This document shows positions 987 to 51,838 of a stretch of DNA of 64,000 bases, piece by piece. Both the position numbers and the translations under genes were made by a program. The DNA comes from Actinomycetota bacterium (GTDB lineage: Bacteria; Actinomycetota; UBA4738). How positions within the stretch are numbered: the first letter of the stretch is position 1; each line of letters opens with the position of its first letter. The notes under the pieces are model-generated. The model was not told the DNA's origin. It saw only the letters and a program-made list of their open reading frames with translations, and did no database searches. Where the stretch lies: positions 2,333-66,332 of the forward strand of contig DATLZQ010000002.1 in the NCBI GenBank assembly GCA_035573915.1. The letters are read 5' to 3'.

Positions 987-1871
987 GTGTCCACCGCCCA
1001 GGCGGAAGGCGCCCGTCGGGCTCCCCTGGGCTGGGTGGCCCGCCGGAGGGGGGCGGCCGCCCGGAAGGTCGCCGTCTTCATCCTGGTCCTGGGGGCCCTG
1101 TGGGGGCTCTGGGAGCTGGCCCGAGCGCTGGGGGAGGCCTCGGGGCTGAGGCTTGGGGCCTTCGAGGTGAACGACCGGACCATGCCTCACGTCCACGACA
1201 TGCTCCGCCAGTTCGTCCAGCCCTCCCGCCGGAACGGTCCCCTCCTCATTGCGGTCCTACTCCAGGCCGCGGCCTTCACCGCCAAGGAGGCCGTCGTGGG
1301 GTTCCTGATCGGGGCGACCGTGGGCTTCGTCATCGGGGTCCTGCTTTCGAACTTCCGTCTCCTGGAGCGGGGGCTCCTCCCCTACATCGTGGCCTCCCAG
1401 ACCGTCCCCATCCTGGCCATCGCCCCCATGGTCGTGGTCTGGATGGGGGCCGGCCTGTTCTCGGTGGCGGTCATCGCCGCCTACCTCACGTTCTTCCCGG
1501 TGGCCATCAACACCCTGCGGGGACTCCGGTCCGCCGACCCCCGGGCCCACGAGCTCATGGCCTCCTACGCCGCGGACCGGTGGCGGGTGCTCTGGAAGCT
1601 CGAGATCCCCGCCTCCCTCCCGTACCTGTTCACGGCCCTGCGGATCGCGGCGCCGGCCAGCGTGGTGGGGGCCATCATCGGCGAGCTCCCCTCCTCCATC
1701 CAGGGAGGGCTGGCCGGGGCCATCCTCAACTTCAACCAGTACTACGTCTCCAACCCCCCAGCCCTCTGGGCCACCAACATCGTGGCCGCCCTCCTGGGGA
1801 TGGCCTTCTTCGGAGCGGTGGTGCTCCTGGAACGGCTGGTCGTCCACCGGGCCCCGGAGCACGTGGCGTGA
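987..1871 (+). CDS. ABC transporter permease, NitT/TauT (SsuC/TauC-like) family
   Basis: 294 aa, multi-TM, BPD_transp_1-like core (LPYLFTALRIAAP, EIPASLPY). GTG start at 987. Paralogous to the next permease. Confidence 0.8.
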   Translation: MSTAQAEGARRAPLGWVARRRGAAARKVAVFILVLGALWGLWELARALGEASGLRLGAFEVNDRTMPHVHDMLRQFVQPSRRNGPLLIAVLLQAAAFTAKEAVVGFLIGATVGFVIGVLLSNFRLLERGLLPYIVASQTVPILAIAPMVVVWMGAGLFSVAVIAAYLTFFPVAINTLRGLRSADPRAHELMASYAADRWRVLWKLEIPASLPYLFTALRIAAPASVVGAIIGELPSSIQGGLAGAILNFNQYYVSNPPALWATNIVAALLGMAFFGAVVLLERLVVHRAPEHVA

Positions 1872-2728
1872 GCACCAGGACGACCTCCTTGGCCACTGCG
1901 GTCTCCCTTCGCGGGGTGACCAAGCGGTTCGCCGTGCGGGGGGGACCGGCCCTGACGGCGCTTGCCTCGGTCGATCTGGACGTCTACCCGGGGGAGTTCG
2001 TGTCGCTCATCGGGCCCTCGGGGTGCGGGAAGTCGACGCTCCTTCGAATCATTGGCGACCTGGTCCCGCCCACGGAAGGCGAGGTGACGGTGAACGGCAA
2101 GCCCGCCCACCAGGCCCGCCTGGACCGGGACTACGGCGTCGTGTTTCAGGACCCGGTCCTCTACGACTGGCGGACCGTGGCCAGGAACATCGCCCTGCCC
2201 CTGGAGATGATGGGGTGGGACCGGGAGCGGCGGGCCCGGCGGGTCCGGGAGATGCTCGAGCTGGTCGAGCTCAGGGGCTTCGAGCACCACTACCCGTGGC
2301 AGCTCTCCGGGGGCATGCAGCAGCGGGTGTCCATCGCCCGGGCCCTGTCCTTCTCCCCGGCCCTCCTCCTCATGGACGAGCCCTTCGGGGCCCTGGACGA
2401 GATGACGCGGGAGCGGCTGAACATGGAGCTGCTCCGGATCTGGGAGCGGAGCGGCAACACGGTGATCTTCGTGACCCACAGCATCCCGGAGGCGGTGTTC
2501 CTCTCCACCCGGGTCGTCGTGATGTCCGCCCGCCCCGGGCGGATCGCGGGGATCGTGGAGGTGGACCTCCCCCAGCCCCGGACCGCCGAGACCCGGGTCC
2601 AGCCCCGGTTCTTCGAGCTGGTCACCGAGGTCCGCCGCCGCCTGCGGGCGGGCGGGGCCGGGGCCGCGGCCGAGGAGGGGCCCTCCGAGCAGGACCTCCT
2701 GGTGGCCGGGGAGGGACAGGCGCCGTGA
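1868..2728 (+). CDS. ABC transporter ATP-binding protein (NitT/TauT family)
   Basis: GTG at 1868 overlaps the permease stop (GTGA). Walker A GPSGCGKST, signature LSGGMQQRVSIARAL, Walker B LLLMDEPFGALD. Confidence 0.85.
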   Translation: MSTRTTSLATAVSLRGVTKRFAVRGGPALTALASVDLDVYPGEFVSLIGPSGCGKSTLLRIIGDLVPPTEGEVTVNGKPAHQARLDRDYGVVFQDPVLYDWRTVARNIALPLEMMGWDRERRARRVREMLELVELRGFEHHYPWQLSGGMQQRVSIARALSFSPALLLMDEPFGALDEMTRERLNMELLRIWERSGNTVIFVTHSIPEAVFLSTRVVVMSARPGRIAGIVEVDLPQPRTAETRVQPRFFELVTEVRRRLRAGGAGAAAEEGPSEQDLLVAGEGQAP

Positions 2729-3551
2729 GCGCGGTCGTGGAGCCGGTCTCCCGCGGGATGCTGCGGCGGGCCGGCCGCCGGGCCCGGCACTGGGTCCCGG
2801 CCGGGGTGGTGCTGGTGGGGGGGATCGCCGCCTGGCAGGGGCTGGTCACGGCCCTGGATATCCAGAAGTTCCTCCTGCCCAAGCCCACGGAGATCGTGCA
2901 GGCCCTGCGCGAGAACTGGCGGTTCCTCTGGGGGGCGGGGATCGCCACGTTCCAGCAGGCCCTGGGGGGGTTCGCCATCGGCGCCGGGATGGGGGTCCTG
3001 GTGGCCCTGGTCCTCGCCCGCTGGCGGTTCCTGGGGAGCGCCCTCCTCCCCTACGCCATCGCCGCCAACGCCATCCCGATCATCGCCTTCGCCCCGATCT
3101 TCAACAACTGGTTCGGGCTCATCAACCCGGTGTCCAAGATGGCCATCGCCTCCGTCATCTGCTTCTTCCCGGTGATGATCAACGCCCTCCGGGGCCTCAC
3201 CTCGGTCCACCCCTCCTCCATCGAGCTCATGCGGTCCTACGCGGCCGGGGAGGGGCCATCTTCCGGCGGGTGCGGATTCCGAACGCCCTGCCCTACCTGT
3301 TCTCCGGGCTCAAGGTGGCCACGGTCCTCTCCATGATCGGGGCGGTGGTCTCCCAGTACTTCGGGGGGCTCCGGGCCACGTCGCTCGGGCTGTTCATCAA
3401 GGAGCGGGCGGCCCTGGCGTTCTTCGCCGACTCGTGGGCGGCCATCGTCGTGGCCAGCGTCCTGGGCGTGGCCTTCTACCTGGCCGTGGCGGCCGTGGAG
3501 CGGGCCGCGCTCCACTGGCACCCGTCGGTGCGGGGCCGACGGCCGGAGTGA
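2725..3551 (+). pseudogene. Second NitT/TauT-family ABC permease, frameshifted (single-base loss in a G-run near 3252-3255)
   Basis: N-terminal 176 aa in frame 1 (to ...ELMRSYAAGEG) continue as AIFRRVRIPNALPYLFSGLKVA... in another frame (ORF 3270..3551). The junction aligns with the paralog's ELMASYAADRWRVLWKLEIPASLPYLF. GAGGGGCC should be GAGGGGGCC. Confidence 0.6.
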
Positions 3552-3668
3552 GGCCGGAGGGCGAAGGTGCAGGGGAGGCGAACGGTATGCGGAGCACAAG
3601 CGGTGGGGTGGTCGGAGCGGTCGCGGGAGGGGGCGGGAGGGTCTCGCGGACGGAGAAAGGAGGGCCGC

Positions 3669-4802
3669 ATGAGTGGGAAGAGATGGCCCAGGTGGCTCGG
3701 CCTGCTGGCCGTGCTCGGGCTGGTGGCCGCGGCCTGCGGCGGCGGAGCGGAGACGCCCGGGGGCGGCGGGGGGCTGACCCCGGTCCGCGTCCAGCTCAAG
3801 TGGGTGACCCAGGCCCAGTTCGCCGGCTACTACGCCGCCCTGGACCAGGGCTACTACCGTGACGAGGGCCTCGACGTGACCATCCTGCCCGGGGGCCCCG
3901 ACATCACCCCCGAACAGGTGGTGGCGGGGGGCGGGGCCGAGTTCGGCCTGGACTGGCTGCCGAGCCTCCTGGCCCAGCGGGACCAGGGCGTGGACCTGGT
4001 CAACGTCGCCCAGGTGTTCACGCGGGCCGGGATCACCGAGATCGCCTGGAAGGACTCGGGGATCGACTCCATCGACGACCTCGCCGGCAAGCGGGTGGGC
4101 GTGTGGTGCTGCGGGAACCAGTACCAGCTGTTCGCGGCGCTGGTGAAGTTCGGGGTGGACCCAGACCCCACGAACGCCACCAACGTCCAGATCGTGGACC
4201 AGCCCTTCGACATGAACCTGTTCCTCAACCGGGAGGTGGACGCCGCGGCGGCCATGACCTACAACGAGATCGCCCAGGTCCTGGAGCAGGTGGGACCCAA
4301 CGGGGAGTTCCCCCTCTACACGATGGACGACCTCAACGTGATCAAGCTGGCCGACGTGGGCACGGGGATGCTCGAGGACGGAATCTTCGTGCGGGGGGAC
4401 TGGATCCAGGACCCGGCCAACCAGGACATCGCCCGGCGGTTCCTCAAGGCCACGTTCAAGGGGTGGATCTACTGCCGGGACAACTTCGAGGCCTGCGTGG
4501 ACATCGTCCTCAAGAACGGGCCGGCCCTGGGGAAGGGGCACCAGACCTGGATGATGAACGAGATCAACAAGCTCATCTGGCCGGCCCCCCTGGGGATCGG
4601 GATCATGGACCCCGAGCTGTTCAAGGTCACCGCGGATATCGCGCTCCAGTTCGGCGTGATCAAGAACCCCGCGGACCCGTCCGCCTCCTACCGGGACGAC
4701 CTGGCCCGGGCAGCGGTGGACGAGCTCAAGGCGGAAGGGCTGGACGTGTTCGGCAACGACTGGCAGCCGGCCACCGTCCAGGTCACCCCCAACGGCGAGT
4801 AG
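3669..4802 (+). CDS. ABC transporter substrate-binding lipoprotein, NMT1/THI5-like (NitT/TauT family)
   Basis: ATG 3669 after GGAGAAAGGAGGG RBS. Signal peptide with lipobox LVAAAC. About 377 aa periplasmic binding fold. Confidence 0.8.
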   Translation: MSGKRWPRWLGLLAVLGLVAAACGGGAETPGGGGGLTPVRVQLKWVTQAQFAGYYAALDQGYYRDEGLDVTILPGGPDITPEQVVAGGGAEFGLDWLPSLLAQRDQGVDLVNVAQVFTRAGITEIAWKDSGIDSIDDLAGKRVGVWCCGNQYQLFAALVKFGVDPDPTNATNVQIVDQPFDMNLFLNREVDAAAAMTYNEIAQVLEQVGPNGEFPLYTMDDLNVIKLADVGTGMLEDGIFVRGDWIQDPANQDIARRFLKATFKGWIYCRDNFEACVDIVLKNGPALGKGHQTWMMNEINKLIWPAPLGIGIMDPELFKVTADIALQFGVIKNPADPSASYRDDLARAAVDELKAEGLDVFGNDWQPATVQVTPNGE

Positions 4803-4831
4803 ACGAGGACCGGAGGGAGAGGAGCGCACGC

Positions 4832-5827
4832 ATGCTGAGCTTCGGGGTCACCTTCCAGGCCGACCCGCCGGTGCGGCGGGTGGTGGAGACCACGCGGCTG
4901 GCCGAGGAGATGGGGTTCGACTACGCCTGGACCTGGGACTCCCACGTCCTGTGGCAGGAGGTGACCCCCATCTTCGCCCTCCAGGCGGTGAACACGGAGC
5001 GCATCCACATCGGCCCCTGCGTCACCAACCCCGCCACCCGGGACCCCACGGTGGTGGCCAGCTCGCTGGCCACCCTCAACGAGATCTCCGGGGGGCGGAT
5101 GGAGATGGGGATCGGCCGGGGGGACTCGGCCCGCCGGGTGATCGGCAAGCCTCCCGTCAGCATCGAGCGGCTGGAGTGGGCGGCCCGCCTCATCAAGGAC
5201 CTGGCCGAGGGGCGGGAGGTGGACTACGAGGGGACCCGGGTCCGGCTCAAGTGGGCCACGGGGACCCTCCCGGTGTGGGTCGCGGCCTACGGCCCCCGGG
5301 CCCTGCGGGTGGCGGGCCGGGTGGGGGACGGGGTCATCATCCAGCTGGCGGACCCCTATCTCATCGGCTGGTTCCTCCGGTACGTCCGGGAGGGGGCGGA
5401 GGAGGCCGGGCGACGGTTCGAGGACATCAAGGTGATGGCCGCCGCCCCGGCCTACGTGACCCAGCACCTTCCCCGGGCCCGGAAGCTCGTCCGGTGGTTC
5501 CCGGCCCTGGTCTCCAACCACGTGGTGGACCTGGTCAAGCGGTACAACCCCGCCGACCTTCCCCAGCAGCTCGTGGACTACATCCGGGCCCGGGACCACT
5601 ACGACTACCAGGAGCACGGGCGGGTGGGGGCCGAACACGCCGGGTTCGTGACCGACGAGGTGGTGGACCGGTTCTGCGTGATCGGGACGGTGGAGGACGT
5701 CACGGCCAAGCTGAAGGAGCTCGAGTCCGTGGGCGTCCATCAGTTCAACATCTACCTATCCTGGGAGGCGGACGCGGAAGGGGTGATCAGGAGCTTCGGG
5801 GAGCACGTGATCCCGGCCCTCCAGTAG
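4832..5827 (+). CDS. Luciferase-like monooxygenase (LLM) class oxidoreductase, probably F420-dependent
   Basis: ATG 4832 after GGAGGGAGAGGAG. 331 aa TIM-barrel LLM pattern (MLSFGVTFQ..., GFDYAWTWDSH, GRMEMGIGRG). Confidence 0.75.
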   Translation: MLSFGVTFQADPPVRRVVETTRLAEEMGFDYAWTWDSHVLWQEVTPIFALQAVNTERIHIGPCVTNPATRDPTVVASSLATLNEISGGRMEMGIGRGDSARRVIGKPPVSIERLEWAARLIKDLAEGREVDYEGTRVRLKWATGTLPVWVAAYGPRALRVAGRVGDGVIIQLADPYLIGWFLRYVREGAEEAGRRFEDIKVMAAAPAYVTQHLPRARKLVRWFPALVSNHVVDLVKRYNPADLPQQLVDYIRARDHYDYQEHGRVGAEHAGFVTDEVVDRFCVIGTVEDVTAKLKELESVGVHQFNIYLSWEADAEGVIRSFGEHVIPALQ

Positions 5828-5875
5828 GGCCGGGGGCCGGCGCCCCGACGTCGCGGAAAGGAGGTCGAGGCCGCC

Positions 5876-6721
5876 ATGGCCACGGTGCGAGCGGCCGTGA
5901 TCCAGGCCCACGCCAACCTGCCCAAGGAGGAGGCCGTCGAGAAGCACATCGAGCTCATCGGCAAAGCCGCCGCCGAGGGGGCCCAGGTCACGTGCCTGCA
6001 GGAGATCTTCCACGGGCCGTACTTCCCCGCCGAGCAGGATCCCAAGTGGTACGCGACGGCCGAGCCGGACGACGGGCCCATGGTGACCCGGATGCGGGAG
6101 GTGGCCCGCCAGCACCGCATGGTCCTCGTGGTGCCCTTCTTCGAGGAGGCCCAGACCGGCGTGTACTACAACTCGGTGGTGGTCATCGAAGCTGACGGGA
6201 CCGTGGTGGGCAAGTACCGCAAGACCCACATCCCCCACGTGGGACCCTGCTTCTGGGAGAAGTTCTACTTCAAGCCGGGCAACCTGGGCTATCCGGTGTG
6301 GCAGACCTCGGTGGGCCGGATCGGGGTCCTCATCTGCTACGACCGCCACTTCCCGGAGCCCGCTCGGGCCCTGGGGCTCAAGGGGGCTGAGCTCGTGTTC
6401 AACCCCAGCGCCACCGTGGAGTCGCTCTCCAAGTACCTCTGGGAGCTCGAGCAGCCCGCCCACGCCGTGGCCAACGGCTACTGGATCGCGGCCATCAACC
6501 GGGTGGGGACGGAGCCCCCCCTCACCGACCACCGGTTCTACGGCTCCTCCTACTTCTGCAGCCCCCGGGGGAAGATCGTGGCCCAGGCCTCCGACTCCGA
6601 GGACGAGGTCCTCGTCCACGACGTGGACCTGGACATGATCCGGGACGTCCGAAACACCTGGCAGTTCCTGCGGGACCGCCGCCCCGAGACCTACGGCGAG
6701 CTCACGGAGCTGCTGCCGTGA
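5876..6721 (+). CDS. Nitrilase-superfamily C-N hydrolase, beta-ureidopropionase / N-carbamoyl-amino-acid amidohydrolase-like
   Basis: 281 aa carbon-nitrogen hydrolase fold (EIFHGPYF..., VLICYDRHFPE, Cys in LICYD). Context with dihydropyrimidinase and aminotransferase. Confidence 0.8.
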   Translation: MATVRAAVIQAHANLPKEEAVEKHIELIGKAAAEGAQVTCLQEIFHGPYFPAEQDPKWYATAEPDDGPMVTRMREVARQHRMVLVVPFFEEAQTGVYYNSVVVIEADGTVVGKYRKTHIPHVGPCFWEKFYFKPGNLGYPVWQTSVGRIGVLICYDRHFPEPARALGLKGAELVFNPSATVESLSKYLWELEQPAHAVANGYWIAAINRVGTEPPLTDHRFYGSSYFCSPRGKIVAQASDSEDEVLVHDVDLDMIRDVRNTWQFLRDRRPETYGELTELLP

Positions 6722-8094
6722 GCGAGGGGCGGGAGGCTCGCCGGATGGGGCCCGGGGGACACCGGGAGGGCCGGCCCCCCCAGGCGGAGTTCCCGGGCGA
6801 CGCCGCGGAGCTCCTGGAGCGGCACCGCCGGGTGCTGCCCAACTGGCTCCTCCTCTACTACCGGGATCCCATCGAGCTGGTGCGAGGGGAGGGGGCCCGG
6901 GTGTGGGACAGCTCGGGCAAGGAGTACCTGGACTTCTTCGGCGGGATCGTCACCACCATCTCCGGGCACGTGGTCCCCAAGCTCGTCCAGGCCCTCACCG
7001 AGCAGGCCCACCGCATCGCCCACAGCTCCACCGTCTACCTCATCCGGCCCATGGTGGAGCTGGCCGAGCGGCTCACGGACCTGGCCCCGGTGGACCCCCC
7101 CTGCAAGGCCTTCTTCGTGGGCTCGGGGACGGAGGCGGTGGAAGCGGCCCTGCTGTTCGCCACCAACTGGCGGCGGTCCAACGAGGTCATCGCCCTGCGG
7201 AACTCCTACCACGGGCGGTCGTTCGGGGCCCTGGCAGTGACCGGCAACAAGGGGTGGGCGGCGAGCTCGTTCAGCCCCCTCAAGGTGTCCTTCGCCCTCT
7301 CCCCATACTGCTACCGCTGCCCGCTGGGTCTCTCCTACCCGGAGTGCGGGGTGGCCTGCGCGGAGGACCTCCGGGACGTGATCCGCACCACCACCACGGG
7401 GGAGCCGGCGGCCATGATCGCCGAGCCGATCCAGGGGGTAGGGGGCTTCGTCACCCCCCCGCCCGAGTACTTCGGGATCGTCAAGTCCATCCTGGACGAG
7501 TTCGGGATCCCCTTCATCGCCGACGAGGTCCAGACGGGCTTCGGCCGGACCGGGGAGACCTTCTGGGGGATCGAGTCCTACGGGGTCCGCCCCGACGCCA
7601 TCGTCTGCGCCAAGGGCCTGGGGAACGGCATGGCCATCGGGGCGGTGGTGGGGCGGGCGGACATGGTGGACTCCCTCCGGGCCAACTCCATCTCCACCTT
7701 CGGAGGCAACCCCCTGGCCACCACCTACGCCCTCAACAACCTCGATTACATCGAGCAGGAGCGGCTCCAGGAGCGCGCCTACAAGCTGGGCCACGCCCTG
7801 TACCGGGGGCTCAAGGACCTGGAGGACCGGTTCCGGGTGGTGGGGGAGGTCCGGGGCAAGGGGCTCATGGTGGGGGTGGAGCTGGTACGGGACCCCCAAG
7901 ACAAGACCCCCCACCCAGAGGGGGCAGCCCTGGCCATGGAGGTGTGCAAGGAGCGGGGGCTCCTGGTTGGCCGGGGGGGTCTGTACGGAAACGTCCTGCG
8001 GCTGTCGCCCCCGCTCGTGATCACCGAGGAGGACGTGGCCCGGGCGGTGGAGACGCTCAGCGTGGCCTTCGAGGAGGTGGAGCGGCAGACCTGA
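6718..8094 (+). CDS. Class-III (omega) aminotransferase, beta-alanine/4-aminobutyrate:2-oxoacid type
   Basis: GTG 6718 overlaps the upstream stop (GTGA). PLP fold type I motifs (FFVGSGTEAVEAAL, IADEVQTGFGRTG, CAKGLGNG). Confidence 0.85.
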   Translation: MSEGREARRMGPGGHREGRPPQAEFPGDAAELLERHRRVLPNWLLLYYRDPIELVRGEGARVWDSSGKEYLDFFGGIVTTISGHVVPKLVQALTEQAHRIAHSSTVYLIRPMVELAERLTDLAPVDPPCKAFFVGSGTEAVEAALLFATNWRRSNEVIALRNSYHGRSFGALAVTGNKGWAASSFSPLKVSFALSPYCYRCPLGLSYPECGVACAEDLRDVIRTTTTGEPAAMIAEPIQGVGGFVTPPPEYFGIVKSILDEFGIPFIADEVQTGFGRTGETFWGIESYGVRPDAIVCAKGLGNGMAIGAVVGRADMVDSLRANSISTFGGNPLATTYALNNLDYIEQERLQERAYKLGHALYRGLKDLEDRFRVVGEVRGKGLMVGVELVRDPQDKTPHPEGAALAMEVCKERGLLVGRGGLYGNVLRLSPPLVITEEDVARAVETLSVAFEEVERQT

Positions 8095-8157
8095 CGGCCC
8101 CGAGCCACCCGCCTCGGGCGGTCAAGGGTCGGACCGAAGGGACGAGGGGGTGCGAGC

Positions 8158-9534
8158 ATGCGGATCCTCATCAAGAACGGCACGGTGGTGACGGCCGACG
8201 AGGCCACCCGGGCCGACGTCCTGGTCGAGGACGAGAAGGTCAAGCTCATCGGGGTGGACATCGAGGCCACCGTGGACCGGGTGATCGACGCCACCGACCG
8301 CTATGTGATCCCGGGGGGCGTGGACGTCCACACCCACTTCGACCTGCCGTTCGGGGGGAGCTTCTGCTCAGACGACTTCGCCACCGGGACCCGGGCCGCG
8401 GCCTTCGGGGGTACCACCACCTGCGTGGACTTCGCGGTCCAGGACTATGGGGAGCCCCTGCGGGCGGGCCTCGAGCGGTGGTTCGAGAGGGGCCAGAAGG
8501 CCCAGACCGACTACGGGCTCCACATGATCGTCCGGGAGGTGAACGACTCGGTCCTCGAGGAGATGGACCGACTGGTGGAGGAGGGGATCACCTCCTTCAA
8601 GCTGTTCATGGCCTACCCGAACGTGTTCATGCTGGACGACGCCTCGATCTTCCGGGCCATGCAGCGGGCGGCCGACTCCGGGGCCCTCATCATGCTCCAC
8701 GCGGAGAACGGGGGGCCCATCGACGTCCTCGTCCAGCAGTACCTGGCGGAGGGCAAGACCGACCCCGTCTACCACGGCCTGAGCCGGCCGGCAGCCCTGG
8801 AGGGGGAGGCCGTGCACCGGGCCTTCAAGATGGCGGAGCTGGCGGGCTGCCCCGCCTACATCGTCCACCTCTCCTCCCGAGACGCCCTCCTCGCGGTCCA
8901 GGAGGCCCGGGACCGAGGCGTCCCCGCCTACGCCGAGACCTGCCCGCAGTACCTCTACCTCTCCCTGGACGACCTGGCCCGCCCGGGGTTCGAGGGGGCC
9001 AAGTTCGTCTGCTCCCCGCCCCTGCGGCCCAAGGACCACCAGGAGGACCTGTGGAAGGGGCTGGCCCAGGGCGACCTCCAGGTGGTGGCCACGGACCACG
9101 CCCCCTTCAACTACAAGGGCCAGAAGGAGCTGGGCAAGGGGAACTTCGCCAAGATCCCCAACGGGCTTCCCACGGTGGAGGACCGGATGACCCTCATCTT
9201 CCAGCGGGTCCGGGAGGGGAGCCTGAGCCTCACCCGATGGGTCGAGCTGTGCTGCACGAACCCGGCCAAGATGTTCGGCCTCTACCCGCGGAAGGGCACC
9301 ATCGCCCCGGGCTTCGACGCCGACCTCGTGGTGTTCGACCCCAAGGTGGAGCGGGTCATCTCCGCCCAGACCCACCACATGAACGTGGACTACTCCTGCT
9401 ACGAGGGCATGAAGGTCTGGGGCAAGCCCGAGGTGGTCATGCAGCGGGGGGCCATCCTGGTCGAGGGCGACCGGTGGTTCGGGAAGGAGGGGCAGGGCCG
9501 GTTCATCCCCCGCAGCCGCTTCCAGGAGCCCTGA
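8158..9534 (+). CDS. Dihydropyrimidinase / D-hydantoinase (cyclic amidohydrolase)
   Basis: 458 aa. MRILIKNGTVVTAD..., metal ligands GGVDVHTHFDLPF, carboxylated-Lys region KLFMAY. Confidence 0.85.
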   Translation: MRILIKNGTVVTADEATRADVLVEDEKVKLIGVDIEATVDRVIDATDRYVIPGGVDVHTHFDLPFGGSFCSDDFATGTRAAAFGGTTTCVDFAVQDYGEPLRAGLERWFERGQKAQTDYGLHMIVREVNDSVLEEMDRLVEEGITSFKLFMAYPNVFMLDDASIFRAMQRAADSGALIMLHAENGGPIDVLVQQYLAEGKTDPVYHGLSRPAALEGEAVHRAFKMAELAGCPAYIVHLSSRDALLAVQEARDRGVPAYAETCPQYLYLSLDDLARPGFEGAKFVCSPPLRPKDHQEDLWKGLAQGDLQVVATDHAPFNYKGQKELGKGNFAKIPNGLPTVEDRMTLIFQRVREGSLSLTRWVELCCTNPAKMFGLYPRKGTIAPGFDADLVVFDPKVERVISAQTHHMNVDYSCYEGMKVWGKPEVVMQRGAILVEGDRWFGKEGQGRFIPRSRFQEP

Positions 9535-9629
9535 GCGGCGGGCGCCGGGCGGGGCCTCTGACGGGCTCCCGGCTTGACGGGCCCGGGGAGGCGTATGCTT
9601 CCGGGGAGCGTGGAACGAGGAGGGACCCG

Positions 9630-11126
9630 ATGAGCGTCCAGACCGTCCGGAGCTTCGTCGCCGGGAGGTTCCGGGAGTCGAGGTCCGAGGAGGTCCAGGT
9701 CGACCCCATCCCTGATCCCGCCACCGGGGAGACCATCGCCCTGCTTCCCTACTCCACCCGGGAGGAGATCGACGAGGCCGTGCGGGCCGCCCGCGCCGCC
9801 TTCCCCGAGTGGTCGAACACGCCGGTCCCGGACCGGGCCCAGGTGATGTTCCGGTTCAAGCAGCTCCTCGAGGACCACTTCGAGGAGCTGGCCCTCCTGG
9901 TCACCCGGGAGAACGGCAAGACCCTCCCCGAGTCCCGGGGGGAGGTCCGCCGGGCCATCGAGGTGGTGGACTTCAGCTGCGGGGCCCCCACCCTCCTCAT
10001 GGGCACCGCCCTCGATCAGATCGCCGACGGGATCGACGAGGAGCTGGTCCGGTTCCCGGTGGGGGTGGTGGCGGGGATCACGCCCTTCAACTTCCCCAAC
10101 ATGGTCCCCCTGTGGATGATCCCGCTGGCCCTGGTGTGCGGGAACACCTTCGTCCTCAAGCCCTCCCAGCGCACCCCGCTCTCCGCCGTCCGCATCGCCG
10201 AGCTGCTGGTCCGGGCGGGGCTCCCCGACGGGGTGTTCAACGTGGTCCACGGGGCCAAGGACGCGGTGGACGCGCTCCTCACCCACCCAGAGGTGGACGC
10301 CGTCTCCTTCGTGGGCTCGGCCACGGTGGCCCGCTACATCTACGCCACCGGGGCGGCCCACGGGAAGCGCGTGCAGGCCCTGGGCGGGGCCAAGAACCAC
10401 ATGATCGTGATGGAGGACGCCGACCTCGAGCGGACGGTCACGGCCATGGTCTCCTCGGCCTTCGGCAACGCCGGGCAACGGTGCCTGGCGGGCAGCGTGG
10501 CCGTGGGGGTGGGCAAGGTGGGCGATGCCCTGGTCCGGGAGCTGGCCGAGCAGGCCGGCCGGCTGAAGGTGGGCCCGGGGGTGGAGCCCGACACCGACAT
10601 GGGCCCGGTCATCCGCGAGGAGCGGAAGAAGGAGCTCATCTCCTACATCGAGGAGGGCGAGGAAGTGGGGGCGGCCCTGGTGGCCGACGGCCGGGGGATC
10701 GAACGGGCCGACGGCTTCTTCCTGGGCCCCACCATCTTCGACCGGGTGACCCCCGACATGCGGCTGTGGCGGGAGGAGCTGTTCGGCCCCATCCTCTCGG
10801 TGGTGCGGGCCTCCGACGTCGACGAGGCCATCCGGATCATGAACGCCAGCCCCTACGGCAACGCCGCCTCCATCTTCACCACCTCCGGGGCCCACGCCCG
10901 GGAGTTCAAGCGTCGGGCCGAGGCCGGGATGCTGGGCATCAACATCGGGATCCCCGCCCCCATGGCCTTCTTCCCGTTCACCGGGTGGAAGCACTCGTTC
11001 TTCGGGGACCTTCACGCCACAGGGATGGACGGGGTGCGCTTCTACACCCGGCACAAGGTCGTGACCTCCCGCTGGTGGCTGGCCCCCCGACTCGACCACA
11101 CCCAGCCGGAGGGGCGGGGCCACTGA
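9630..11126 (+). CDS. mmsA: CoA-acylating methylmalonate-/malonate-semialdehyde dehydrogenase
   Basis: ATG 9630 after GGAACGAGGAGGGA. ALDH motifs (FPVGVVAGITPFNFP, Cys in GQRCLA, ELFGPI). Confidence 0.85.
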   Translation: MSVQTVRSFVAGRFRESRSEEVQVDPIPDPATGETIALLPYSTREEIDEAVRAARAAFPEWSNTPVPDRAQVMFRFKQLLEDHFEELALLVTRENGKTLPESRGEVRRAIEVVDFSCGAPTLLMGTALDQIADGIDEELVRFPVGVVAGITPFNFPNMVPLWMIPLALVCGNTFVLKPSQRTPLSAVRIAELLVRAGLPDGVFNVVHGAKDAVDALLTHPEVDAVSFVGSATVARYIYATGAAHGKRVQALGGAKNHMIVMEDADLERTVTAMVSSAFGNAGQRCLAGSVAVGVGKVGDALVRELAEQAGRLKVGPGVEPDTDMGPVIREERKKELISYIEEGEEVGAALVADGRGIERADGFFLGPTIFDRVTPDMRLWREELFGPILSVVRASDVDEAIRIMNASPYGNAASIFTTSGAHAREFKRRAEAGMLGINIGIPAPMAFFPFTGWKHSFFGDLHATGMDGVRFYTRHKVVTSRWWLAPRLDHTQPEGRGH

Positions 11127-11143
11127 GCGGTCCGGACCGGGAG

Positions 11144-12229
11144 GTGCCCGGCCGGCGAGCGGTGGGGTCCTCCGGGCGCGGCGCGGGCCCCGGCGACGCT
11201 CCTGACCTGCGGACGCTGGACCTGCGGGCCCTCCCCAAGGTCGAGCTGCACCGCCACCTGGAGGGCTCCCTCCGGCTGGGCACGGTGATCGAGCTCTCCC
11301 GGGCAGCTGGCCTCCAGCTCCCCGCCTGGACCGAGGAGGCGCTGGCTCCCCTGGCTCTGGTCCGGGAGCCCGTCGGGAGTCTTGAGGAGGCCCTTTCGAG
11401 GTTCGCCCTCTTCCAGGGGGCGGTCCGGAGCCTGGAGGCCGTGCGGCGGGTGACCCGAGAGGCCGTCGAGGACCTGGCGGCGGACGGGGTCCGTCTCGCC
11501 GAGCTCCGGTTCTCGCCCCAGTTCCTGTGCGAGCCCGGAGGGCTCGACTGGGACGCCGCGCTGGAGGCCATCCTGCAGGGCCTGGAGGACACCAGGGGCC
11601 AGGACGTGGCCGTGGGGCTGGTGGCCATCGCCAGCCGGGACTACGGGCTGGAGTCGGCCCGGGCCACGGCAGGCTTCGCCCTCCGCCACCGGGAGCACCT
11701 GGTGGGCTTCGACCTGGCCGGCCCGGAGCTCGGCTTCCCTCCGCGCCGGTACCGGGACGTGGTGAACCCCGTCAAGGAGGCGGGGCTGGGCCTCACCGCC
11801 CACTACGGGGAGTCGGGCCCGCCCTCGTACGCGCTGGAGGCGTTGGAGGCGCTGGGCGCGGACCGGCTGGGCCACGGGCTGTCCGTGGCCCGGGACCCCG
11901 AGGCCGTTCGCCGGGTGGCGGAGGCCGGGGTGACGTTGGAGATGTGTCCCACCTCCAACTGGCTCACCGGCGGGGTGGCCCGCCTCGGCGACCACCCAGC
12001 CCGCCGCCTGCTGGGCCAGGGCGTCCGGGTCACGCTGAACTCGGACGACCCAGGGCTCTTCGGGACCGACCTCACCCACGAGTTTGAGGTGGCCCGGGAC
12101 GAGCTGGGGTTCAGCTGGGGCGACGTCCGCGCGGTGACGGCCAACGCCCTGGCCGCCAGCTTCCTGCCGCCGCCGGTGAAGGAGGCGGTGCGGGCCCGGC
12201 ACTTCGGGTGGCTCGGCCCCGCGGACTGA
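11144..12229 (+). CDS. add: Adenosine deaminase (exact start uncertain: GTG 11144 or 11162)
   Basis: ADA signature LPKVELHRHLEGS near the N-terminus, plus HAGE (TAHYGE) and LNSDDP motifs. Start codon not resolved. Confidence 0.7.
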   Translation: MPGRRAVGSSGRGAGPGDAPDLRTLDLRALPKVELHRHLEGSLRLGTVIELSRAAGLQLPAWTEEALAPLALVREPVGSLEEALSRFALFQGAVRSLEAVRRVTREAVEDLAADGVRLAELRFSPQFLCEPGGLDWDAALEAILQGLEDTRGQDVAVGLVAIASRDYGLESARATAGFALRHREHLVGFDLAGPELGFPPRRYRDVVNPVKEAGLGLTAHYGESGPPSYALEALEALGADRLGHGLSVARDPEAVRRVAEAGVTLEMCPTSNWLTGGVARLGDHPARRLLGQGVRVTLNSDDPGLFGTDLTHEFEVARDELGFSWGDVRAVTANALAASFLPPPVKEAVRARHFGWLGPAD

Positions 12230-14360: not shown

Positions 14361-15168
14361 GGTAGAAGACCTCCCGGGTGAGGGCCCGGGTCTTGCGGCT
14401 GAAGATGACGGCCAGCTCCCGGCGGCCGTCCCAGTAGTGGAGGTAGACCTTCATGGTGGAGGCGTCCACCTGGATCTCGTTCCAGGAGGGCGGGGTGAGG
14501 CCCCGGATCCGGCGGGTGGCCGCGGTCCCCGAGTTGCACACCAGGATCCCGTTGAGCCCCCAGAAGTAGGGGACGTGCTTGTGGCCGGAGAGGACCAGGT
14601 CCACGTCCAGGCGGGTGAGCTCGGCCAGGAGGTCGCCGGCGTCGGTGATGATGTTGCGCTCCCTGCCGGTGCCGGGGATCGACACCAGGTGGTGGTGGAT
14701 GGCGAACACCTTGACGTCGTCGGGCTCATCGAACTGCTCGCGGATCCAGGGGTAGCGCTCCCGTCCCACGTGCCCCTCGTCCAGGTCGGGCTGGGAAGAG
14801 TCCACCCCCACCACCGTGAAGCCCGTGGCCTGGAGCCGCTCGGCCCGGACCGGGTCGAAGGCCTGCCGGTAGCGGGAGAACCGGTCCCCGAAGAACCGCC
14901 GGAAGTGGATGTAGCCCACGTTGCGGGAGTCGTGGTTGCCGGGGATGACGACCTTGGGGGCCTCGACCTTCTCCAGCCACCGGGCGGCCTGCTCGAACTC
15001 CCACTCGTAGCCGGCGGCGGTGAGGTCCCCGCACACCACCACGACGTCGGGCCGGATCCGGTTGACCCGCTCGACGATGGCGCCCATGACGTCGGGCTGG
15101 AAGGTGGGCTCGCCGCAGTGCAGGTCGGAGATCTGGACGATGCGGAGCGGCAGGCTGGCGATGGTCAC
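14317..15168 (-). CDS. Metallophosphoesterase (calcineurin-like)
   Basis: GTG at 15168 preceded by GAAGGAGGA. IVQISDLHCGE, GDLT, GNHD, HHH motifs. The longer ORF (to 15393) would overlap the divergent gene. Confidence 0.7.
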   Translation of the reverse strand: MTIASLPLRIVQISDLHCGEPTFQPDVMGAIVERVNRIRPDVVVVCGDLTAAGYEWEFEQAARWLEKVEAPKVVIPGNHDSRNVGYIHFRRFFGDRFSRYRQAFDPVRAERLQATGFTVVGVDSSQPDLDEGHVGRERYPWIREQFDEPDDVKVFAIHHHLVSIPGTGRERNIITDAGDLLAELTRLDVDLVLSGHKHVPYFWGLNGILVCNSGTAATRRIRGLTPPSWNEIQVDASTMKVYLHYWDGRRELAVIFSRKTRALTREVFYLTEDFLASNRILVD

Positions 15169-15220
15169 GCGGTCCTCCTTCGGGTGACCGAACGGTGAGG
15201 CGGCCTGTCCCCTACGATAC

Positions 15221-15688
15221 TTGGGGATGGAGGACGTGAGGGCCAGCTCGCCGGTCACGCACAGCCTGGTCAAGGCCCTCCGGTCCGTGCCCGACTTCGC
15301 CGCGCTGGACGACCGGACCCTGCTCCGGATCGTGGGGGCCTCGACCAACCTGGTGTGGAAGGCGGGCAGCACGATCTTCGAGAAGGGAAGCACCTCCGAC
15401 GCCCTCTACGTGGTCCTCTCTGGGCTGGTCCGGGTGTTCGACCTCGACGACGGACGCGAGGTGGACGTGGCCCGCCTGGGCCCGGGGGAGTCGTTCGGGG
15501 AGCTCTCCCTGCTCCTGCACACCGTGCACTCCAAGAGCGCCCAGGCTGTCGAGGACAGCGAGCTCCTGGTGGTCCCCAGGGAGTCCTTCGAGGAGGTCCT
15601 GGCGAGCAGCCCCGAGCTGGCCGCCCACTTCCGGCGCCGGCTCCAGGAGCGGCTGGCGGTCAGGGGCCAGGTCAGCGAGTCGGCCTGA
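15221..15688 (+). CDS. Cyclic-nucleotide-binding (cNMP/Crp-like effector) domain protein
   Basis: 155 aa single cNMP-binding domain (GESFGELSLL). No HTH. Confidence 0.7.
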   Translation: MGMEDVRASSPVTHSLVKALRSVPDFAALDDRTLLRIVGASTNLVWKAGSTIFEKGSTSDALYVVLSGLVRVFDLDDGREVDVARLGPGESFGELSLLLHTVHSKSAQAVEDSELLVVPRESFEEVLASSPELAAHFRRRLQERLAVRGQVSESA

Positions 15689-15694
15689 GCAGCG

Positions 15695-16437
15695 GTGGGG
15701 CCAGTCGGGCGGGGGGTCACGGAGGAGGTCTGCGCGGTCGCCGCCTACGCCCGGAGCGTGTCGGCCCGGGTGCTGGAGGCTGGCCCCGAGGGCGTGGTCC
15801 TGGACCGCACGGTGTTTTACGCCCGGGGCGGCGGCCAGCCCGGCGACACGGGCTGGCTGCGGTGAGACGACGGCCGGGTCCGGGTGGCGGACACCGTCCG
15901 GCGCCACGGAGTCCCGCTCCACGTCGTTGAGGGCCTCCCACCGCCCGTGGGGGCCGAGGTCACGGCGGAGCTCGACTGGGACCGGCGGTACCTCCTGATG
16001 CGGACCCACACCGCCCTTCACCTGCTGTCCGGGATCGTCTGGCGGGACTGCGGGGCGAAGGTAACCGGGGGGAACATGGAGCGGGGCAGGCCCGGATGGA
16101 CTTCGAGCTCGAGCGAATGTCGGCCGAGTTCGGCCGGGAGGTCGAGGCCGAGCTGCGGGAGGCGGTGGCCGCCGATCGGCCGGTGCGGGTCCTGTTCCTG
16201 CCCCGGGCCCAGGGCCTGACCGACCCCTACCTCATCCGGACCAAGGTGAGCCTCCTCCCTCCGGAAGTCGACCCCATCCGGGTCATCGACATCGAGGGGG
16301 TCGACCGGCAGGCCGATGGAGGGACCCACGTGCGCTCCACGGTGGAGGTGGGGGAGGTGCGGGTGGTGAGGACCGAGAGCAAGGGGCGGGCTTTCAAGCG
16401 GATGCGCATCGCCGTCGGGGATCTGGCTGGACCGTGA
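15695..16437 (+). pseudogene. AlaX-like Ala-tRNA(Ala) editing/deacylase domain protein, disrupted by an in-frame TGA (15863-15865) and a frameshift (about 16083-16086)
   Basis: Pieces read ...VLDRTVFYARGGGQPGDTGWLR*DDGRVRVADTV...IDWDRRYLLMRTHTALHLLSGIV...GGNMERG | ARMDFELERMSAEF...GGTHVRSTVEVGEVRVV... HxxxH and GGTH zinc motifs of the AlaX/AlaRS editing domain. Frameshift sits in a GCGGGG run. Confidence 0.55.
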
Positions 16438-32166: not shown

Positions 32167-33546
32167 TCAGCGGGCGGGCGTGCCGCTCGGCTCCAGCTCG
32201 GCCCACGGGCCGGCCTCCTGGTCAGGCTCGGGCGGTGCGCCGCGGTCCGGCTCCGAGGGAGCCGCCCGCTCCGGCCCCGGGGCCCCGACCAGGCCCTCGC
32301 CCCCGTGCACCCCGGCCACGGCCGCCGGGGCGAGGTGGTAGCCGACCTCCCGATGCTGCGAGACGTCGAGGCCCGCCGTCTCCTCCTCCTCGCTCACCCG
32401 CAGGCCGAGGAGGGCGTCGCAGGCCCGGGCCAGGAGCAGCGTGACCAAGAACGAGTAGGCCCCGGTGGCGGCCACGGCCCCCGCCTGCCGTCCCACCTGG
32501 GCCACGCTCCCGTCGGCCCCGGTCGGGTTGACGGCGAGGCTCGCGAAGGCGCCCGTGAGGAGGGCCCCCACCAGGCCGCCCACCAGGTGGACCCCCACCA
32601 CGTCCAGGGAGTCGTCGTAGCCCAGGCGGCCCTTGACGTCGACCGCGGCGAAGCAGACCACCCCGGCGGTGAACCCGATGGCCAGGGCCCCCCAGGGGCC
32701 CACGAAGCCCGAGGCCGGGGTGATGGCCACGAGCCCTGCCACGGCCCCGGTGGCCGCGCCCACCGTGGTGGGCCGACCATGGCGGAGCCACTCGGGCAGC
32801 AGCCATCCGAGCATGGCGGCGGCCGCCCCGAGGTGCGTCACGCTGAAGGCGGTGGCGGCCAGGCCGCTCGCCGTGAGGGCGCTCCCGGCGTTGAACCCGA
32901 ACCATCCGAACCAGAGGATGCCGGCCCCCAGCACCACCAGGGGCACGTTGTGAGGGACGAAGGCCTCCTGACCGTACCCCCGGCGCCGGCCCAGGTACAG
33001 GGCCATGGCCAGGGCGGCCGCCCCCGCGTTCACGTGGACGACAGTCCCCCCGGCGAAGTCGAGGGCCCCCAGCCCGGCCGGGCCCAGGAACCCTCCGCCC
33101 CACACCCAGTGGGCCACGGGGGCGTACACGAAGAGGGACCACAGGGCGAGGAACAGGAGGTAGCCCGAGAACCTCATCCGCTCGGCGAAGGCCCCGGTGA
33201 TGAGGGCCGGGGTGATGACGGCGAACATGAGCTGGAAAGCCATGAAGGCCTGGGCGGGCACGGTGGGGGCGAGGGGGCTCGGTTCGGCCCCCACCCCGGA
33301 CAGCCCGACGAAGTCCAGCCTCCCGATCACCCGGCCCAGGTCCGGCCCGAAGGCCAGCGTGTAGCCGAGGAGCATCCAGAGGACGCTCACCACGGCCAGG
33401 GCCACGAAGGACTGCATGATGGTGGCCAGGACGTTCTTGGCCCGGACCAGCCCCCCGTAGAAGAGCGCCAGGCCGGGCGTCATGAACATGACCAGCGCGG
33501 CCGCGGCCAGAAGCCACGCCGTGTCGCCCGTGTCGACCGCAGGCAT
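32167..33546 (-). CDS. amt: Ammonium transporter (Amt family)
   Basis: 459 aa, 11 TM. Signature DFAGGTVVHVNAGAAALA, twin-His region. Confidence 0.85.
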   Translation of the reverse strand: MPAVDTGDTAWLLAAAALVMFMTPGLALFYGGLVRAKNVLATIMQSFVALAVVSVLWMLLGYTLAFGPDLGRVIGRLDFVGLSGVGAEPSPLAPTVPAQAFMAFQLMFAVITPALITGAFAERMRFSGYLLFLALWSLFVYAPVAHWVWGGGFLGPAGLGALDFAGGTVVHVNAGAAALAMALYLGRRRGYGQEAFVPHNVPLVVLGAGILWFGWFGFNAGSALTASGLAATAFSVTHLGAAAAMLGWLLPEWLRHGRPTTVGAATGAVAGLVAITPASGFVGPWGALAIGFTAGVVCFAAVDVKGRLGYDDSLDVVGVHLVGGLVGALLTGAFASLAVNPTGADGSVAQVGRQAGAVAATGAYSFLVTLLLARACDALLGLRVSEEEETAGLDVSQHREVGYHLAPAAVAGVHGGEGLVGAPGPERAAPSEPDRGAPPEPDQEAGPWAELEPSGTPAR

Positions 33547-33651
33547 CCCGCACCTCCCGTCGTCGGCTCGTCGTTGCGGCAGGTTGTAGCCGACGGAGGT
33601 TTCGGGCCGATTTCGGGGGTGTTTCCGACCGGTTAATTCCCGGACGGGTGG

Positions 33652-34080
33652 TCAGGCCGGGGGGGAGGCGGCTCGCTGCTCCAGGCCGCTCTTGAGCAGC
33701 CAGGCCTGGACGATCACGTCGTGGATGAGCTTCGCCGGGGACCCCTTGAGCAGGTAGGCGTAGGCCTCGACCTCGGCGGCGCTGCGCTCGGGGAGGGGCC
33801 CCTCGTAGGCGGTGAGGATGACCACCTGGGTGAAGGGGAGGGAGGCCCGGATGGCCCGCGTGGCCTCGAACCCGCCCATCCCGGGAAGCCGGAGGTCCAT
33901 GAGGACCACGTCCGGACGACGCTCCAGGGCCAGCCGCACTCCCTCCTCGCCGTCGGCGGCCTCCCCCACCACCGCCATCCCCTCCGCCTCCAGGAGCTCG
34001 CGCAACAGCGCGCGCTCGGTGGGGTCGTCCTCCACGAGCAGCAGGCGGGGAGATCGGTGGGTGTGCACTGGAGGGCTCAT
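33652..34080 (-). CDS. Single-domain response regulator (CheY-like receiver)
   Basis: ATG 34080 after GAGGGA. LLLVEDDP, D in VVLMDLRLPGMGG, T/K region ILTAY...K. Confidence 0.7.
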   Translation of the reverse strand: MSPPVHTHRSPRLLLVEDDPTERALLRELLEAEGMAVVGEAADGEEGVRLALERRPDVVLMDLRLPGMGGFEATRAIRASLPFTQVVILTAYEGPLPERSAAEVEAYAYLLKGSPAKLIHDVIVQAWLLKSGLEQRAASPPA

Positions 34081-34306
34081 CCGATCGGTCCCTCGTATCT
34101 TCCGACCCCCGACCGGCGCCCGCATCGGACCTTCGACCTAACTTGGCGGTGACGGCCACGAGGCCGGCTCCCGGGGCCGCCCGGGGTGGCCCGCTCCTTG
34201 AATTCGCTGGCAGCGGCCCCTATCCTTGCGGTGGCTTCCCCTGAGGTCGGCTTCGGAGCCGCCTTGCCCGGGGCGCGCTCCAGGCCCCGAGCGGAAAGGA
34301 GCGTGC

Positions 34307-37385: not shown

Positions 37386-37674
37386 GCCGGTCCCCGGCCC
37401 GCGCTACGCCCGGCCCCCGGGGCCGTCCTCCAGCTCGACCCTGGTGACGACCTTGGTGGCCCCTCGGGCGAAGGCCACCCGGTGCACCCGGTCCAGCAGG
37501 GCCAGGACGTCCTCGAGGGGCCCCCGCACGGTGGTCCCCAGGGGCCCCACGTCCGCTTCCAGACCCGAACGCCGGGTCTCTTCCAGGGCCGCCTGCACGT
37601 AGGGCTCCAGCCGCTCGGTGACGAAGGGGTAGATCGTGAACTCCCCCACGGCCACCGGGTCCCGCCGGCCCATC

Positions 37675-40817: not shown

Positions 40818-40877
40818 TGCCTGCCTCCCTTCACTTGCCGACCACTCCACCGCGCCTGCAGCGGGACTGTGATCCGA

Positions 40878-44535: not shown

Positions 44536-44570
44536 TATGCGCGATCCCCTCCCGCTGGGTGACGGCCGGC

Positions 44571-45566: not shown

Positions 45567-45631
45567 TTCCGTCACCTCCTCCGGGTCGTTCGCGGGCTCG
45601 CTCTCCTCGGCAATCTGGGTCCGGACCGGGG

Positions 45632-49430: not shown

Positions 49431-49434
<4 letters not shown>
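48028..49434 (-). CDS. Amidohydrolase, COG0402-type (guanine/8-oxoguanine/cytosine deaminase-like)
   Basis: GTG overlaps the FeS-subunit stop (GTGA). LVNAHHHLYQ metal site, HTHVAET, GVDGSASND. Confidence 0.75.
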
Positions 49435-49895
<461 letters not shown>

Positions 49896-49907
49896 CCCAC
49901 CCCTCCC

Positions 49908-51817: not shown

Positions 51818-51838
51818 CTCCCACGTGCCGCCTCCGTC

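Follow-up and report, generated by a model that had tools for sequence, protein, structure and literature searches.

An F420-type luciferase-like oxidoreductase as a candidate replacement for dihydropyrimidine dehydrogenase in an actinobacterial pyrimidine catabolic gene cluster

A gene cluster for reductive pyrimidine catabolism (Pyd) is located in a 64,000-nucleotide stretch of DNA from an Actinomycetota bacterium (UBA4738; GenBank assembly GCA_035573915.1, contig DATLZQ010000002.1, positions 2,333–66,332), which is referred to as a whole as the window. The usual first enzyme of the pathway, dihydropyrimidine dehydrogenase (DPD; PydA or PreT/PreA), contains flavin mononucleotide (FMN), flavin adenine dinucleotide (FAD) and several 4Fe-4S clusters. 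In the cluster, each pathway step except the first has a candidate gene, and the sole unassigned enzyme is LLM1, a 331-residue luciferase-like (LLM) oxidoreductase encoded at positions 4832–5827 of the plus strand. LLM1 is proposed with moderate confidence to be an F420H2-dependent uracil/thymine reductase that replaces PydA without being homologous to it. The preliminary description of the window had cast LLM1 as an F420-type stand-in for PydA, and this role is supported as the leading hypothesis by protein family, gene synteny, the absence of PreTA and a comparison with a Deinococcus cluster. The substrate, the reaction direction and the hydride mechanism of LLM1 are all predicted, as is its use of F420 in the host organism.

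Genes of the window, which has a G+C content of 73%, were called by GC content at the third codon position (GC3) and annotated with Pfam and NCBIfam. The cluster starts on the plus strand with four genes of an ATP-binding cassette (ABC) importer, encoding permease 1 of the NitT/TauT type (987–1871; BPD_transp_1, 4e-21), an ATPase (1868–2728; ABC_tran, 3.8e-33), permease 2 (2725–3551; BPD_transp_1) and a solute-binding protein of the NMT1/THI5/ThiY (pyrimidine-binding) family (3567–4802; Pfam NMT1, 3.2e-38). LLM1 comes next and is followed on the same strand by a β-ureidopropionase-like C-N hydrolase of the N-carbamoyl-amidase branch (5876–6721; CN_hydrolase, 4.7e-67), a class-III aminotransferase of the γ-aminobutyrate (GABA)/β-alanine type (6718–8094; Aminotran_3, 1.8e-94), the dihydropyrimidinase PydB (8158–9534; TIGR02033, 583 bits with a cut-off of 393) and a CoA-acylating malonate/methylmalonate-semialdehyde dehydrogenase (MMSDH; 9630–11126; TIGR01722, 637 bits with a cut-off of 448). 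This gene set and its span of 987–11126 had been given in the preliminary description and were recovered by gene calling, Pfam and NCBIfam. The relatives of the C-N hydrolase in the Protein Data Bank (PDB) are N-carbamoylputrescine amidase (1e-58), the fly and human β-ureidopropionases (∼1e-48 to 1e-49) and D-carbamoylases, and no NCBIfam equivalog model was passed by this protein. The closest solved relatives of the aminotransferase are two amino-acid racemases, followed by E. coli GabT/PuuE (∼1e-70). By homology, the C-N hydrolase and the aminotransferase fit the putative roles of PydC and PydD, respectively.

No gene resembling PydA accompanies these enzymes, as had been claimed for the cluster. 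A tblastn search with E. coli PreT and PreA (E ≤ 1e-3) gave no match in the whole 64-kb window and none in any of 80 loci of LLM1 relatives, which represent ∼1.2 Mb of neighborhoods. A DHO_dh-type protein was likewise not detected by Pfam among the remaining called genes of the window. The negative result is not a problem of sensitivity, because the same PreA query, used as a positive control, retrieved homologues with 38–44% identity from Deinococcus, Bacillus and Burkholderia plasmids. In the PreA search of the plasmid collection, the ten commonest genera do not include Streptomyces, with 34 further genera unitemised. The PreTA locus of Bacillus cereus has no Pyd neighbors.

LLM1 belongs to the NCBIfam family TIGR03842 (LLM class F420-dependent oxidoreductase, CPS_4043 family). 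The subfamily-model search placed LLM1 in the F420-using LLM class to which it had been provisionally assigned, with a TIGR03842 score of 430.1 bits (cut-off, 295.45) over profile positions 2–329 of 329; in Pfam, LLM1 matches only the luciferase-like domain PF00296. TIGR03842 is a ‘hypoth_equivalog’ whose function is left open by NCBI, and its matches in a large protein collection at E ≤ 1e-20 amount to at least 8,000 clusters of 90% identity. An exact-sequence search retrieved no identical protein for LLM1, whose nearest relative exhibits 90% identity. The 14 best NCBIfam matches of LLM1 are all F420 families, and its closest solved relatives, methylene-tetrahydromethanopterin reductase (Mer, EC 1.5.98.2; 2e-41, ∼31–35% identity), FGD, fHMAD and Adf, are all F420 enzymes. 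An AlphaFold (AF2) model of LLM1 (pLDDT, 87) was compared with known structures using Foldseek, and the best matches were Mer–F420 complexes with TM-scores of 0.77–0.81. PMC8518648 assigns Mer to the ‘reductase’ clade of F420 TIM barrels, which also holds fPKR and LxmJ. According to the same source, the redox potential of F420 resembles that of NAD(P); therefore, pyrimidine reduction with F420H2 should be as feasible as that with NADPH.

The F420 site of LLM1 was analyzed with an alignment of 78 family sequences, taking as reference the Mer residues that PMC11094777 defines. The Val64, Asp98 and Gln171 residues of LLM1, the first of which lies at the non-prolyl cis-peptide position, are invariant in all 78 sequences and align to Val62, Asp96 and residue 178 of Mer. 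The architecture of an F420 site is present in LLM1 and consists of a cis-peptide bulge after β3, a GIGxGD loop after β4 and a carboxamide after β6. The position of the catalytic Glu6 residue of Mer (position 7 in LLM1) is occupied by threonine in 57 sequences, cysteine in 19 and serine in 2. The Glu6Gln variant of Mer keeps 0.4% of kcat (PMC11094777). Because the F420-site positions are conserved and Glu6 is replaced, LLM1 is predicted to keep the deazaflavin cofactor site and to differ from Mer in its substrate chemistry. The 64-kb window contains no F420 biosynthesis genes.

The neighborhoods of LLM1 relatives were examined in the species-representative genomes of GTDB, which were scanned with the family alignment and yielded 585 confirmed relatives. 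The loci studied are the best 80 of these 585 (55–78% identity, flanks of up to 10 kb on each side, mostly contigs of metagenome-assembled genomes) and represent five phyla, namely Actinomycetota, Chloroflexota, Dormiibacterota, Acidobacteriota and Bacillota. Of these, 55 were assessable, having no less than 3 kb of sequence on either side of the LLM gene. A C-N hydrolase gene is found within 4 kb of the LLM gene in 49 of the 55 loci, usually as the next gene, and a dihydropyrimidinase gene is nearby in 44; both are present in 42, which bears out the tie between LLM and Pyd genes described for the window. An MMSDH homologue occurs in 24/55 loci. Recurrence in five phyla puts the arrangement far beyond chance. 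In the cultured Streptomyces rimosus, an F420 producer, and in Streptomyces sp. BHT-5-2, the LLM gene likewise occurs in one cluster with genes for the C-N hydrolase, aminotransferase and dihydropyrimidinase, and the LLM proteins share 49–50% identity with LLM1.

Unbiased clustering of all open reading frames in the loci revealed one further conserved neighbor. An NCS1 cytosine/purine/uracil permease gene is positioned immediately upstream of the LLM gene in 31 loci, in place of the ABC importer. The LLM gene thus adjoins an importer in three architectures, with ABC genes upstream (the window), NCS1 upstream (31 loci) or ABC genes downstream (a Paracoccus plasmid). In one locus, L079, a type I restriction-modification methylase/specificity gene and an IS200-type transposase gene (6297–9666) are located between the C-N hydrolase (903–1754) and LLM (10001–10984) genes. 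This insertion looks like a mobile element that splits the usual gene pair.

A canonical cluster on the Deinococcus actinosclerus plasmid CP029777 provides a counterpart in which the first step is assigned. The gene order is PreT, PreA, a small open reading frame, dihydropyrimidinase, an ABC ATPase, two permeases, an NMT1-type binding protein, an M20 hydrolase of the PydC type, a PucR regulator and a class-III aminotransferase. The window proteins exhibit 42% (dihydropyrimidinase), 64% (ATPase), 43% (permease 1) and 38% (binding protein, E = 8e-64) identity to their Deinococcus counterparts. The homologous importer and ring-opening enzyme are thus found with PreTA in Deinococcus and with LLM1 in the window, a pattern that supports non-orthologous displacement of the reductase. 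Because the homologous importer is located in the Deinococcus PreTA cluster, the comparison also supports a uracil/thymine-type ligand as the predicted cargo of the window importer. The closest solved structures of the window binding protein include the formylaminopyrimidine-binding protein ThiY (PDB 3IX1). On CP029777 (locus L087), the NMT1-type binding protein (14858–15919) carries the label ‘myristoyl transferase’, and the ATPase is labelled ‘sulfonate ABC transporter’. Both are probably annotation artefacts that arise from the name of the NMT1 family and obscure a pyrimidine importer.

The TIGR03842 family is also linked to F420 biosynthesis. On plasmids of Paracoccus alcaliphilus (locus L083, 4587–11002) and Leisingera caerulea (locus L084, 4510–11002), a cofG-cofH-cofD-cofC-cofE-npdG operon ends with a RefSeq-annotated TIGR03842 gene. 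The alphaproteobacterial members share 42–44% identity with LLM1, and in Paracoccus, the TIGR03842 gene is followed by a NitT/TauT-type ABC importer. The operon is a direct genomic link of the family to F420 biosynthesis and to F420:NADPH oxidoreductase, and the alphaproteobacterial F420 operon may exist to serve the TIGR03842 enzyme alone. In addition, there is overlap between the phyla with close LLM1 relatives and the phyla from which F420 biosynthesis genes have been reported (PMC8498797).

In the proposed pathway, uracil or thymine would be brought into the cell by the NMT1-type ABC importer. LLM1 would bind F420H2 and pass the C5 hydride of the cofactor directly to C6 of the pyrimidine, and C5 of the pyrimidine would be protonated from the active site to yield 5,6-dihydrouracil or 5,6-dihydrothymine. 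The ring would then be opened by the dihydropyrimidinase, and the carbamoyl group would be removed by the C-N hydrolase with release of NH3 and CO2. The resulting β-alanine or β-aminoisobutyrate would be converted by the aminotransferase into malonate semialdehyde or methylmalonate semialdehyde, from which MMSDH would generate acetyl-CoA or propionyl-CoA. It is argued that LLM1 acts early in this pathway and not on the semialdehyde, because LLM1 is the only enzyme of the cluster that has no assigned step, adjoins an importer in each of the three architectures and persists in loci whose flanks show no MMSDH gene.

Several observations weigh against LLM1 as a uracil/thymine reductase. No acid residue of LLM1 is assigned to the protonation of C5; candidate proton donors close to the site include the invariant residues D36-S37-H38, R70, R96, S228-N229-H230, Y257, Y259 and H262. 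The tightest partner of LLM is the C-N hydrolase, which would act at the third step, and not the dihydropyrimidinase of the second step; one metagenome locus contains only LLM and the C-N hydrolase within 10 kb. The alphaproteobacterial members are not near Pyd genes (none within 10 kb). In three Acidobacteria loci, LLM is paired with a molybdoenzyme of the xanthine dehydrogenase (XDH) family instead of the dihydropyrimidinase and C-N hydrolase. Family members more distant than the best 80 of 585 may differ, and other substrates may apply below ∼50% identity. Moreover, the search of the host genome for PydA covers only the 64 kb of the window. The molybdoenzymes of the three Acidobacteria loci (L065, 5290–8920; L076, 11102–15567; L079, 11505–15073) consist of three subunits with 31–34% identity to the XDH proteins of the window, and an MMSDH gene is located further downstream in two of these loci. 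They may represent a variant pathway or a different substrate.

Four other functions were considered for LLM1. The physiological substrate could be another N-heterocycle (for instance, a substituted pyrimidine or hydantoin precursor) taken up in place of uracil and thymine, which LLM1 would reduce to a dihydro ring for the hydantoinase/dihydropyrimidinase to open. The broad specificity of TIGR02033 D-hydantoinase/dihydropyrimidinase enzymes, the thiamine-type pyrimidine ligands of the nearest solved relatives of the binding protein, the added XDH-family hydroxylase in some Acidobacteria loci and the alphaproteobacterial members without Pyd neighbors are consistent with such a substrate. This function is nevertheless rather unlikely, given that the β-alanine-type aminotransferase and MMSDH match the C3/C4 products of uracil and thymine, that the homologous importer is found in a bona fide PreTA cluster of Deinococcus and that nucleobase permeases of the NCS1 family take the place of the importer in 31 loci. 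A canonical PydA could instead be encoded elsewhere in the genome, which is seen here over 64 kb, and LLM1 could have another role, such as in F420-dependent reduction of malonate semialdehyde to 3-hydroxypropionate (a PydE/RutE-like detoxification) or in other alcohol/aldehyde redox chemistry. Adf, FGD and fHMAD are F420-dependent LLM enzymes that act as alcohol/sugar dehydrogenases, and extended Pyd pathways with a semialdehyde reductase have reportedly been described by Yin and colleagues in J Biol Chem in 2019. However, LLM1 is nearest to the reductase clade (Mer) and not to the dehydrogenase clade, and the semialdehyde is already handled by MMSDH. LLM is also kept in many loci with the C-N hydrolase and dihydropyrimidinase alone, where MMSDH was not found in the retrievable flank. 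Together with the position of LLM beside an importer and the failure to find PreA/PreT in the ∼1.2 Mb of neighborhoods, these features make a role outside the first step unlikely.

RutA is also a luciferase-like enzyme that acts on uracil, and LLM1 could accordingly be a RutA-like flavin monooxygenase that opens uracil oxidatively to ureidoacrylate, from which the C-N hydrolase would take the ureido group; the most conserved gene pair, LLM and the C-N hydrolase (49/55), would suit this sequence of reactions. Assignment of LLM1 as RutA was rejected, because no RutA model was found among the NCBIfam matches at E ≤ 1e-10, the best of which are F420 families. A flavin reductase gene was not found in the cluster by Pfam, the dihydropyrimidinase present in 44/55 loci needs a reduced ring, and the cof operon linkage indicates F420, which PMC8518648 describes as an obligate hydride carrier. 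An oxidative ring cleavage by LLM1 is thus highly improbable. There is next to no probability that LLM1 is a genuine methylene-tetrahydromethanopterin (or folate) reductase that neighbors the Pyd genes by accident. Mer is the closest characterized homologue, with the identity and E-value given above, but the equivalog scores of LLM1 are far under the cut-offs (TIGR03555, 170 versus 348.7; NF002619, 177 versus 276) and the catalytic Glu6 residue is missing in all 78 members, and LLM1 was rejected as Mer on these two grounds. The linkage to Pyd genes that is conserved in five phyla also speaks against an accidental position.

The window contains a second LLM protein, LLM2, in another nucleobase cluster. 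The minus strand at 42772–58317 carries a gene set similar to that of the reductive uric-acid pathway of PMC12507026. It encodes a selenium-dependent XDH/XdhD-like protein (TIGR03311, 1000 bits), a pucD-type XDH with Fe-S and FAD subunits, an SsnA-like amidohydrolase (400 bits, slightly below the cut-off), YgeY (496 bits), a YgeW-like carbamoyltransferase, a PALP enzyme, an 8-oxoguanine deaminase and an adenine deaminase. The gene for the Mer-like LLM2 (50792–51808, minus strand) is flanked by the SsnA-like and FAD-subunit genes and occupies the slot of YgfK/UacX in E. coli and C. difficile. LLM2 shares 27% identity with LLM1, scores below the TIGR03842 cut-off and belongs to no named NCBIfam subfamily. 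The host appears to use F420-type LLM reductases in place of DPD-like ones in both nucleobase pathways. By analogy, LLM2 strengthens the case for LLM1 as a pyrimidine reductase but is not independent proof. There is an even chance that TIGR03842 represents a third, non-homologous and Fe-S-free class of dihydropyrimidine dehydrogenase, with LLM1 serving pyrimidines and LLM2 serving uric acid/‘yanthine’, both driven by F420. A variant with an LLM gene in the uric-acid cluster has been reported for Chloroflexota (PMC12507026), and the variant observed here is located in an actinobacterial window. In a locus from Blastocatellia (L066, 10001–16764), genes for LLM1, the C-N hydrolase, an LLM2 homologue (65% identity) and an SsnA-like amidohydrolase stand side by side, a layout that unites portions of the two reductive sets, pyrimidine and purine.

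The pyrimidine genes of the window form part of a single co-directional row on the plus strand (987–12229) with intergenic distances from −4 to 96 bp. The last gene of the row encodes an adenosine deaminase (11162–12229; TIGR01430, 253 bits with a cut-off of 216) and starts 36 bp past the MMSDH gene. The genes up to the cluster end given earlier, 11126, were confirmed, but the transcription unit probably extends to 12229 and takes in the adenosine deaminase. No terminator-like site was found on the plus strand of the row; such sites around the cluster occur on the minus strand alone, in numbers no greater than chance. A promoter scan found none, and an Rfam search revealed three tRNAs only and no riboswitch. 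The adenosine deaminase was not accepted as a conserved member of the pathway, since a homologue is present in only one of the 80 loci. Similarly, the electron-transfer flavoprotein β (ETF-β) gene at 1–729 was rejected as an electron partner, being divergent in orientation and absent from 80/80 loci.

The importer described at 987–4802 was confirmed to comprise four genes, but the second permease gene is split between two frames by a deletion of one base (∼3253–3258). The deletion is located in a GGGGCC run and results in the frames 2725–3336 and 3270–3551. The two halves cover BPD_transp_1 profile positions 5–94 and 102–181, respectively, in different frames. In the orthologues from three related loci (L006, L010 and L019), the sequence AAGEAATFRRV runs uninterrupted across the deletion site. 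The frameshift reflects either a mistake in sequencing or assembly or a recent pseudogene.

Other genes of the window were recorded. Between the two nucleobase clusters, an ammonium transporter (32167–33546), a response regulator (33652–34068) and a xanthine/uracil-family permease (34307–35800) are encoded, and the region 32167–35800 looks like a nitrogen-scavenging island. On the minus strand, a small thiamine-binding-protein-like gene (37404–37673) is adjacent to a gene for a CbiQ and double-ATPase fusion (37675–40035), a transporter protein of the energy-coupling factor (ECF) type. The minus strand at 37404–42610 also contains two genes of the 5-formyltetrahydrofolate cyclo-ligase family, one of which is unusual in being fused to a GntR DNA-binding domain (41681–42610). 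At 59076–62170, a metallophosphoesterase-domain protein (508 residues) is translationally coupled to a SagB-type peptide dehydrogenase of the nitroreductase fold (523 residues), and the pair may be part of a maturation system for RiPPs (peptides made by the ribosome and then modified post-translationally). A bacterial proteasome activator gene is also present and, with the best database hits of the window, suggests an actinobacterial host.

In the openly searchable full-text literature (subscription-only sources being outside the scope), no F420 or LLM enzyme was found in pyrimidine degradation. A 2021 review of F420 has no mention of uracil, refers to pyrimidine only with respect to photolyase and FO synthesis, lists no role in pyrimidine catabolism and states that there is no experimental work on F420 function in bacteria outside Actinobacteria (PMC8498797). 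A paper on GlnR of M. smegmatis lists only the M20 carbamoylase and hydA.

If LLM1 is an F420H2-dependent uracil/thymine reductase, a function would be provided for the large orphan family TIGR03842, and a cofactor-distinct first step would be added to the textbook pathway, of which NAD(P)H- and ferredoxin-dependent forms are already known. F420 would gain a housekeeping role in central nitrogen/nucleotide catabolism in Actinomycetota, Chloroflexota, Dormiibacterota and Acidobacteriota. Reconstructions in which soil Actinomycetota, Chloroflexota and Acidobacteriota are called non-degraders of pyrimidines for want of PydA would be corrected. Such a function might also explain the plasmid-borne F420 operon that ends in a TIGR03842 gene in some Alphaproteobacteria. 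A small, oxygen-tolerant and Fe-S-free enzyme for uracil or 5-fluorouracil would be attractive for biocatalysis.

For the first step of the pathway, NAD(P)H-dependent PydA/PreTA and ferredoxin-dependent PydAc are known (PMC7332683), all of them homologous Fe-S flavoproteins. LLM1 resembles them in its proposed reaction, its pathway and its operon slot beside the dihydropyrimidinase and the NMT1-type importer. However, the TIM barrel of LLM1 is unrelated to them in sequence and fold and lacks Fe-S, FMN and FAD domains. PydA/PreT-PreA combines a DHO_dh-like FMN domain and 4Fe-4S domains with a GltD-like FAD/NAD(P) subunit, and its electrons pass through a wire of FAD, 4Fe-4S clusters and FMN, whereas direct hydride transfer from F420H2 is proposed for LLM1. 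Compared with Mer (PDB 8QPL and 1Z69), LLM1 has the same fold, the same F420-site loops (GPxVTNP and GIGxGD) and Gln171. LLM1 differs from Mer in scoring under the Mer equivalog cut-offs, in the replacement of Glu6 by threonine, cysteine or serine, in a diverged helical substrate subdomain and in gene context, which is pyrimidine catabolism for LLM1 and C1 metabolism for Mer.

Three further systems share single features with LLM1. RutA is alike in its luciferase-like fold and in uracil, the proposed substrate of LLM1. RutA depends on FMN and O2, breaks the ring open and requires a flavin reductase, and LLM1 matches no RutA model at E ≤ 1e-10. LxmJ is an F420H2-dependent LLM enzyme that reduces the C=C bond of dehydroalanine (PMC8498797). 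It is a member of the reductase clade, to which LLM1 is closest, and acts on an α,β-unsaturated amide comparable to C5=C6-C4=O of uracil. The substrate of LxmJ is a peptide in a secondary-metabolite pathway, and the likeness is drawn from chemistry and not from sequence. In the uric-acid clusters of Chloroflexota, a putative F420 luciferase-family ‘yanthine reductase’ is predicted where YgfK/UacX stand elsewhere (PMC12507026), and this remark is the nearest published idea to the role proposed for LLM1. The two proteins are alike in that an LLM enzyme takes the place of a DPD-like reductase, but they belong to different LLM subfamilies, and the Chloroflexota enzyme is placed in purine degradation, whereas LLM1 is placed in pyrimidine degradation.

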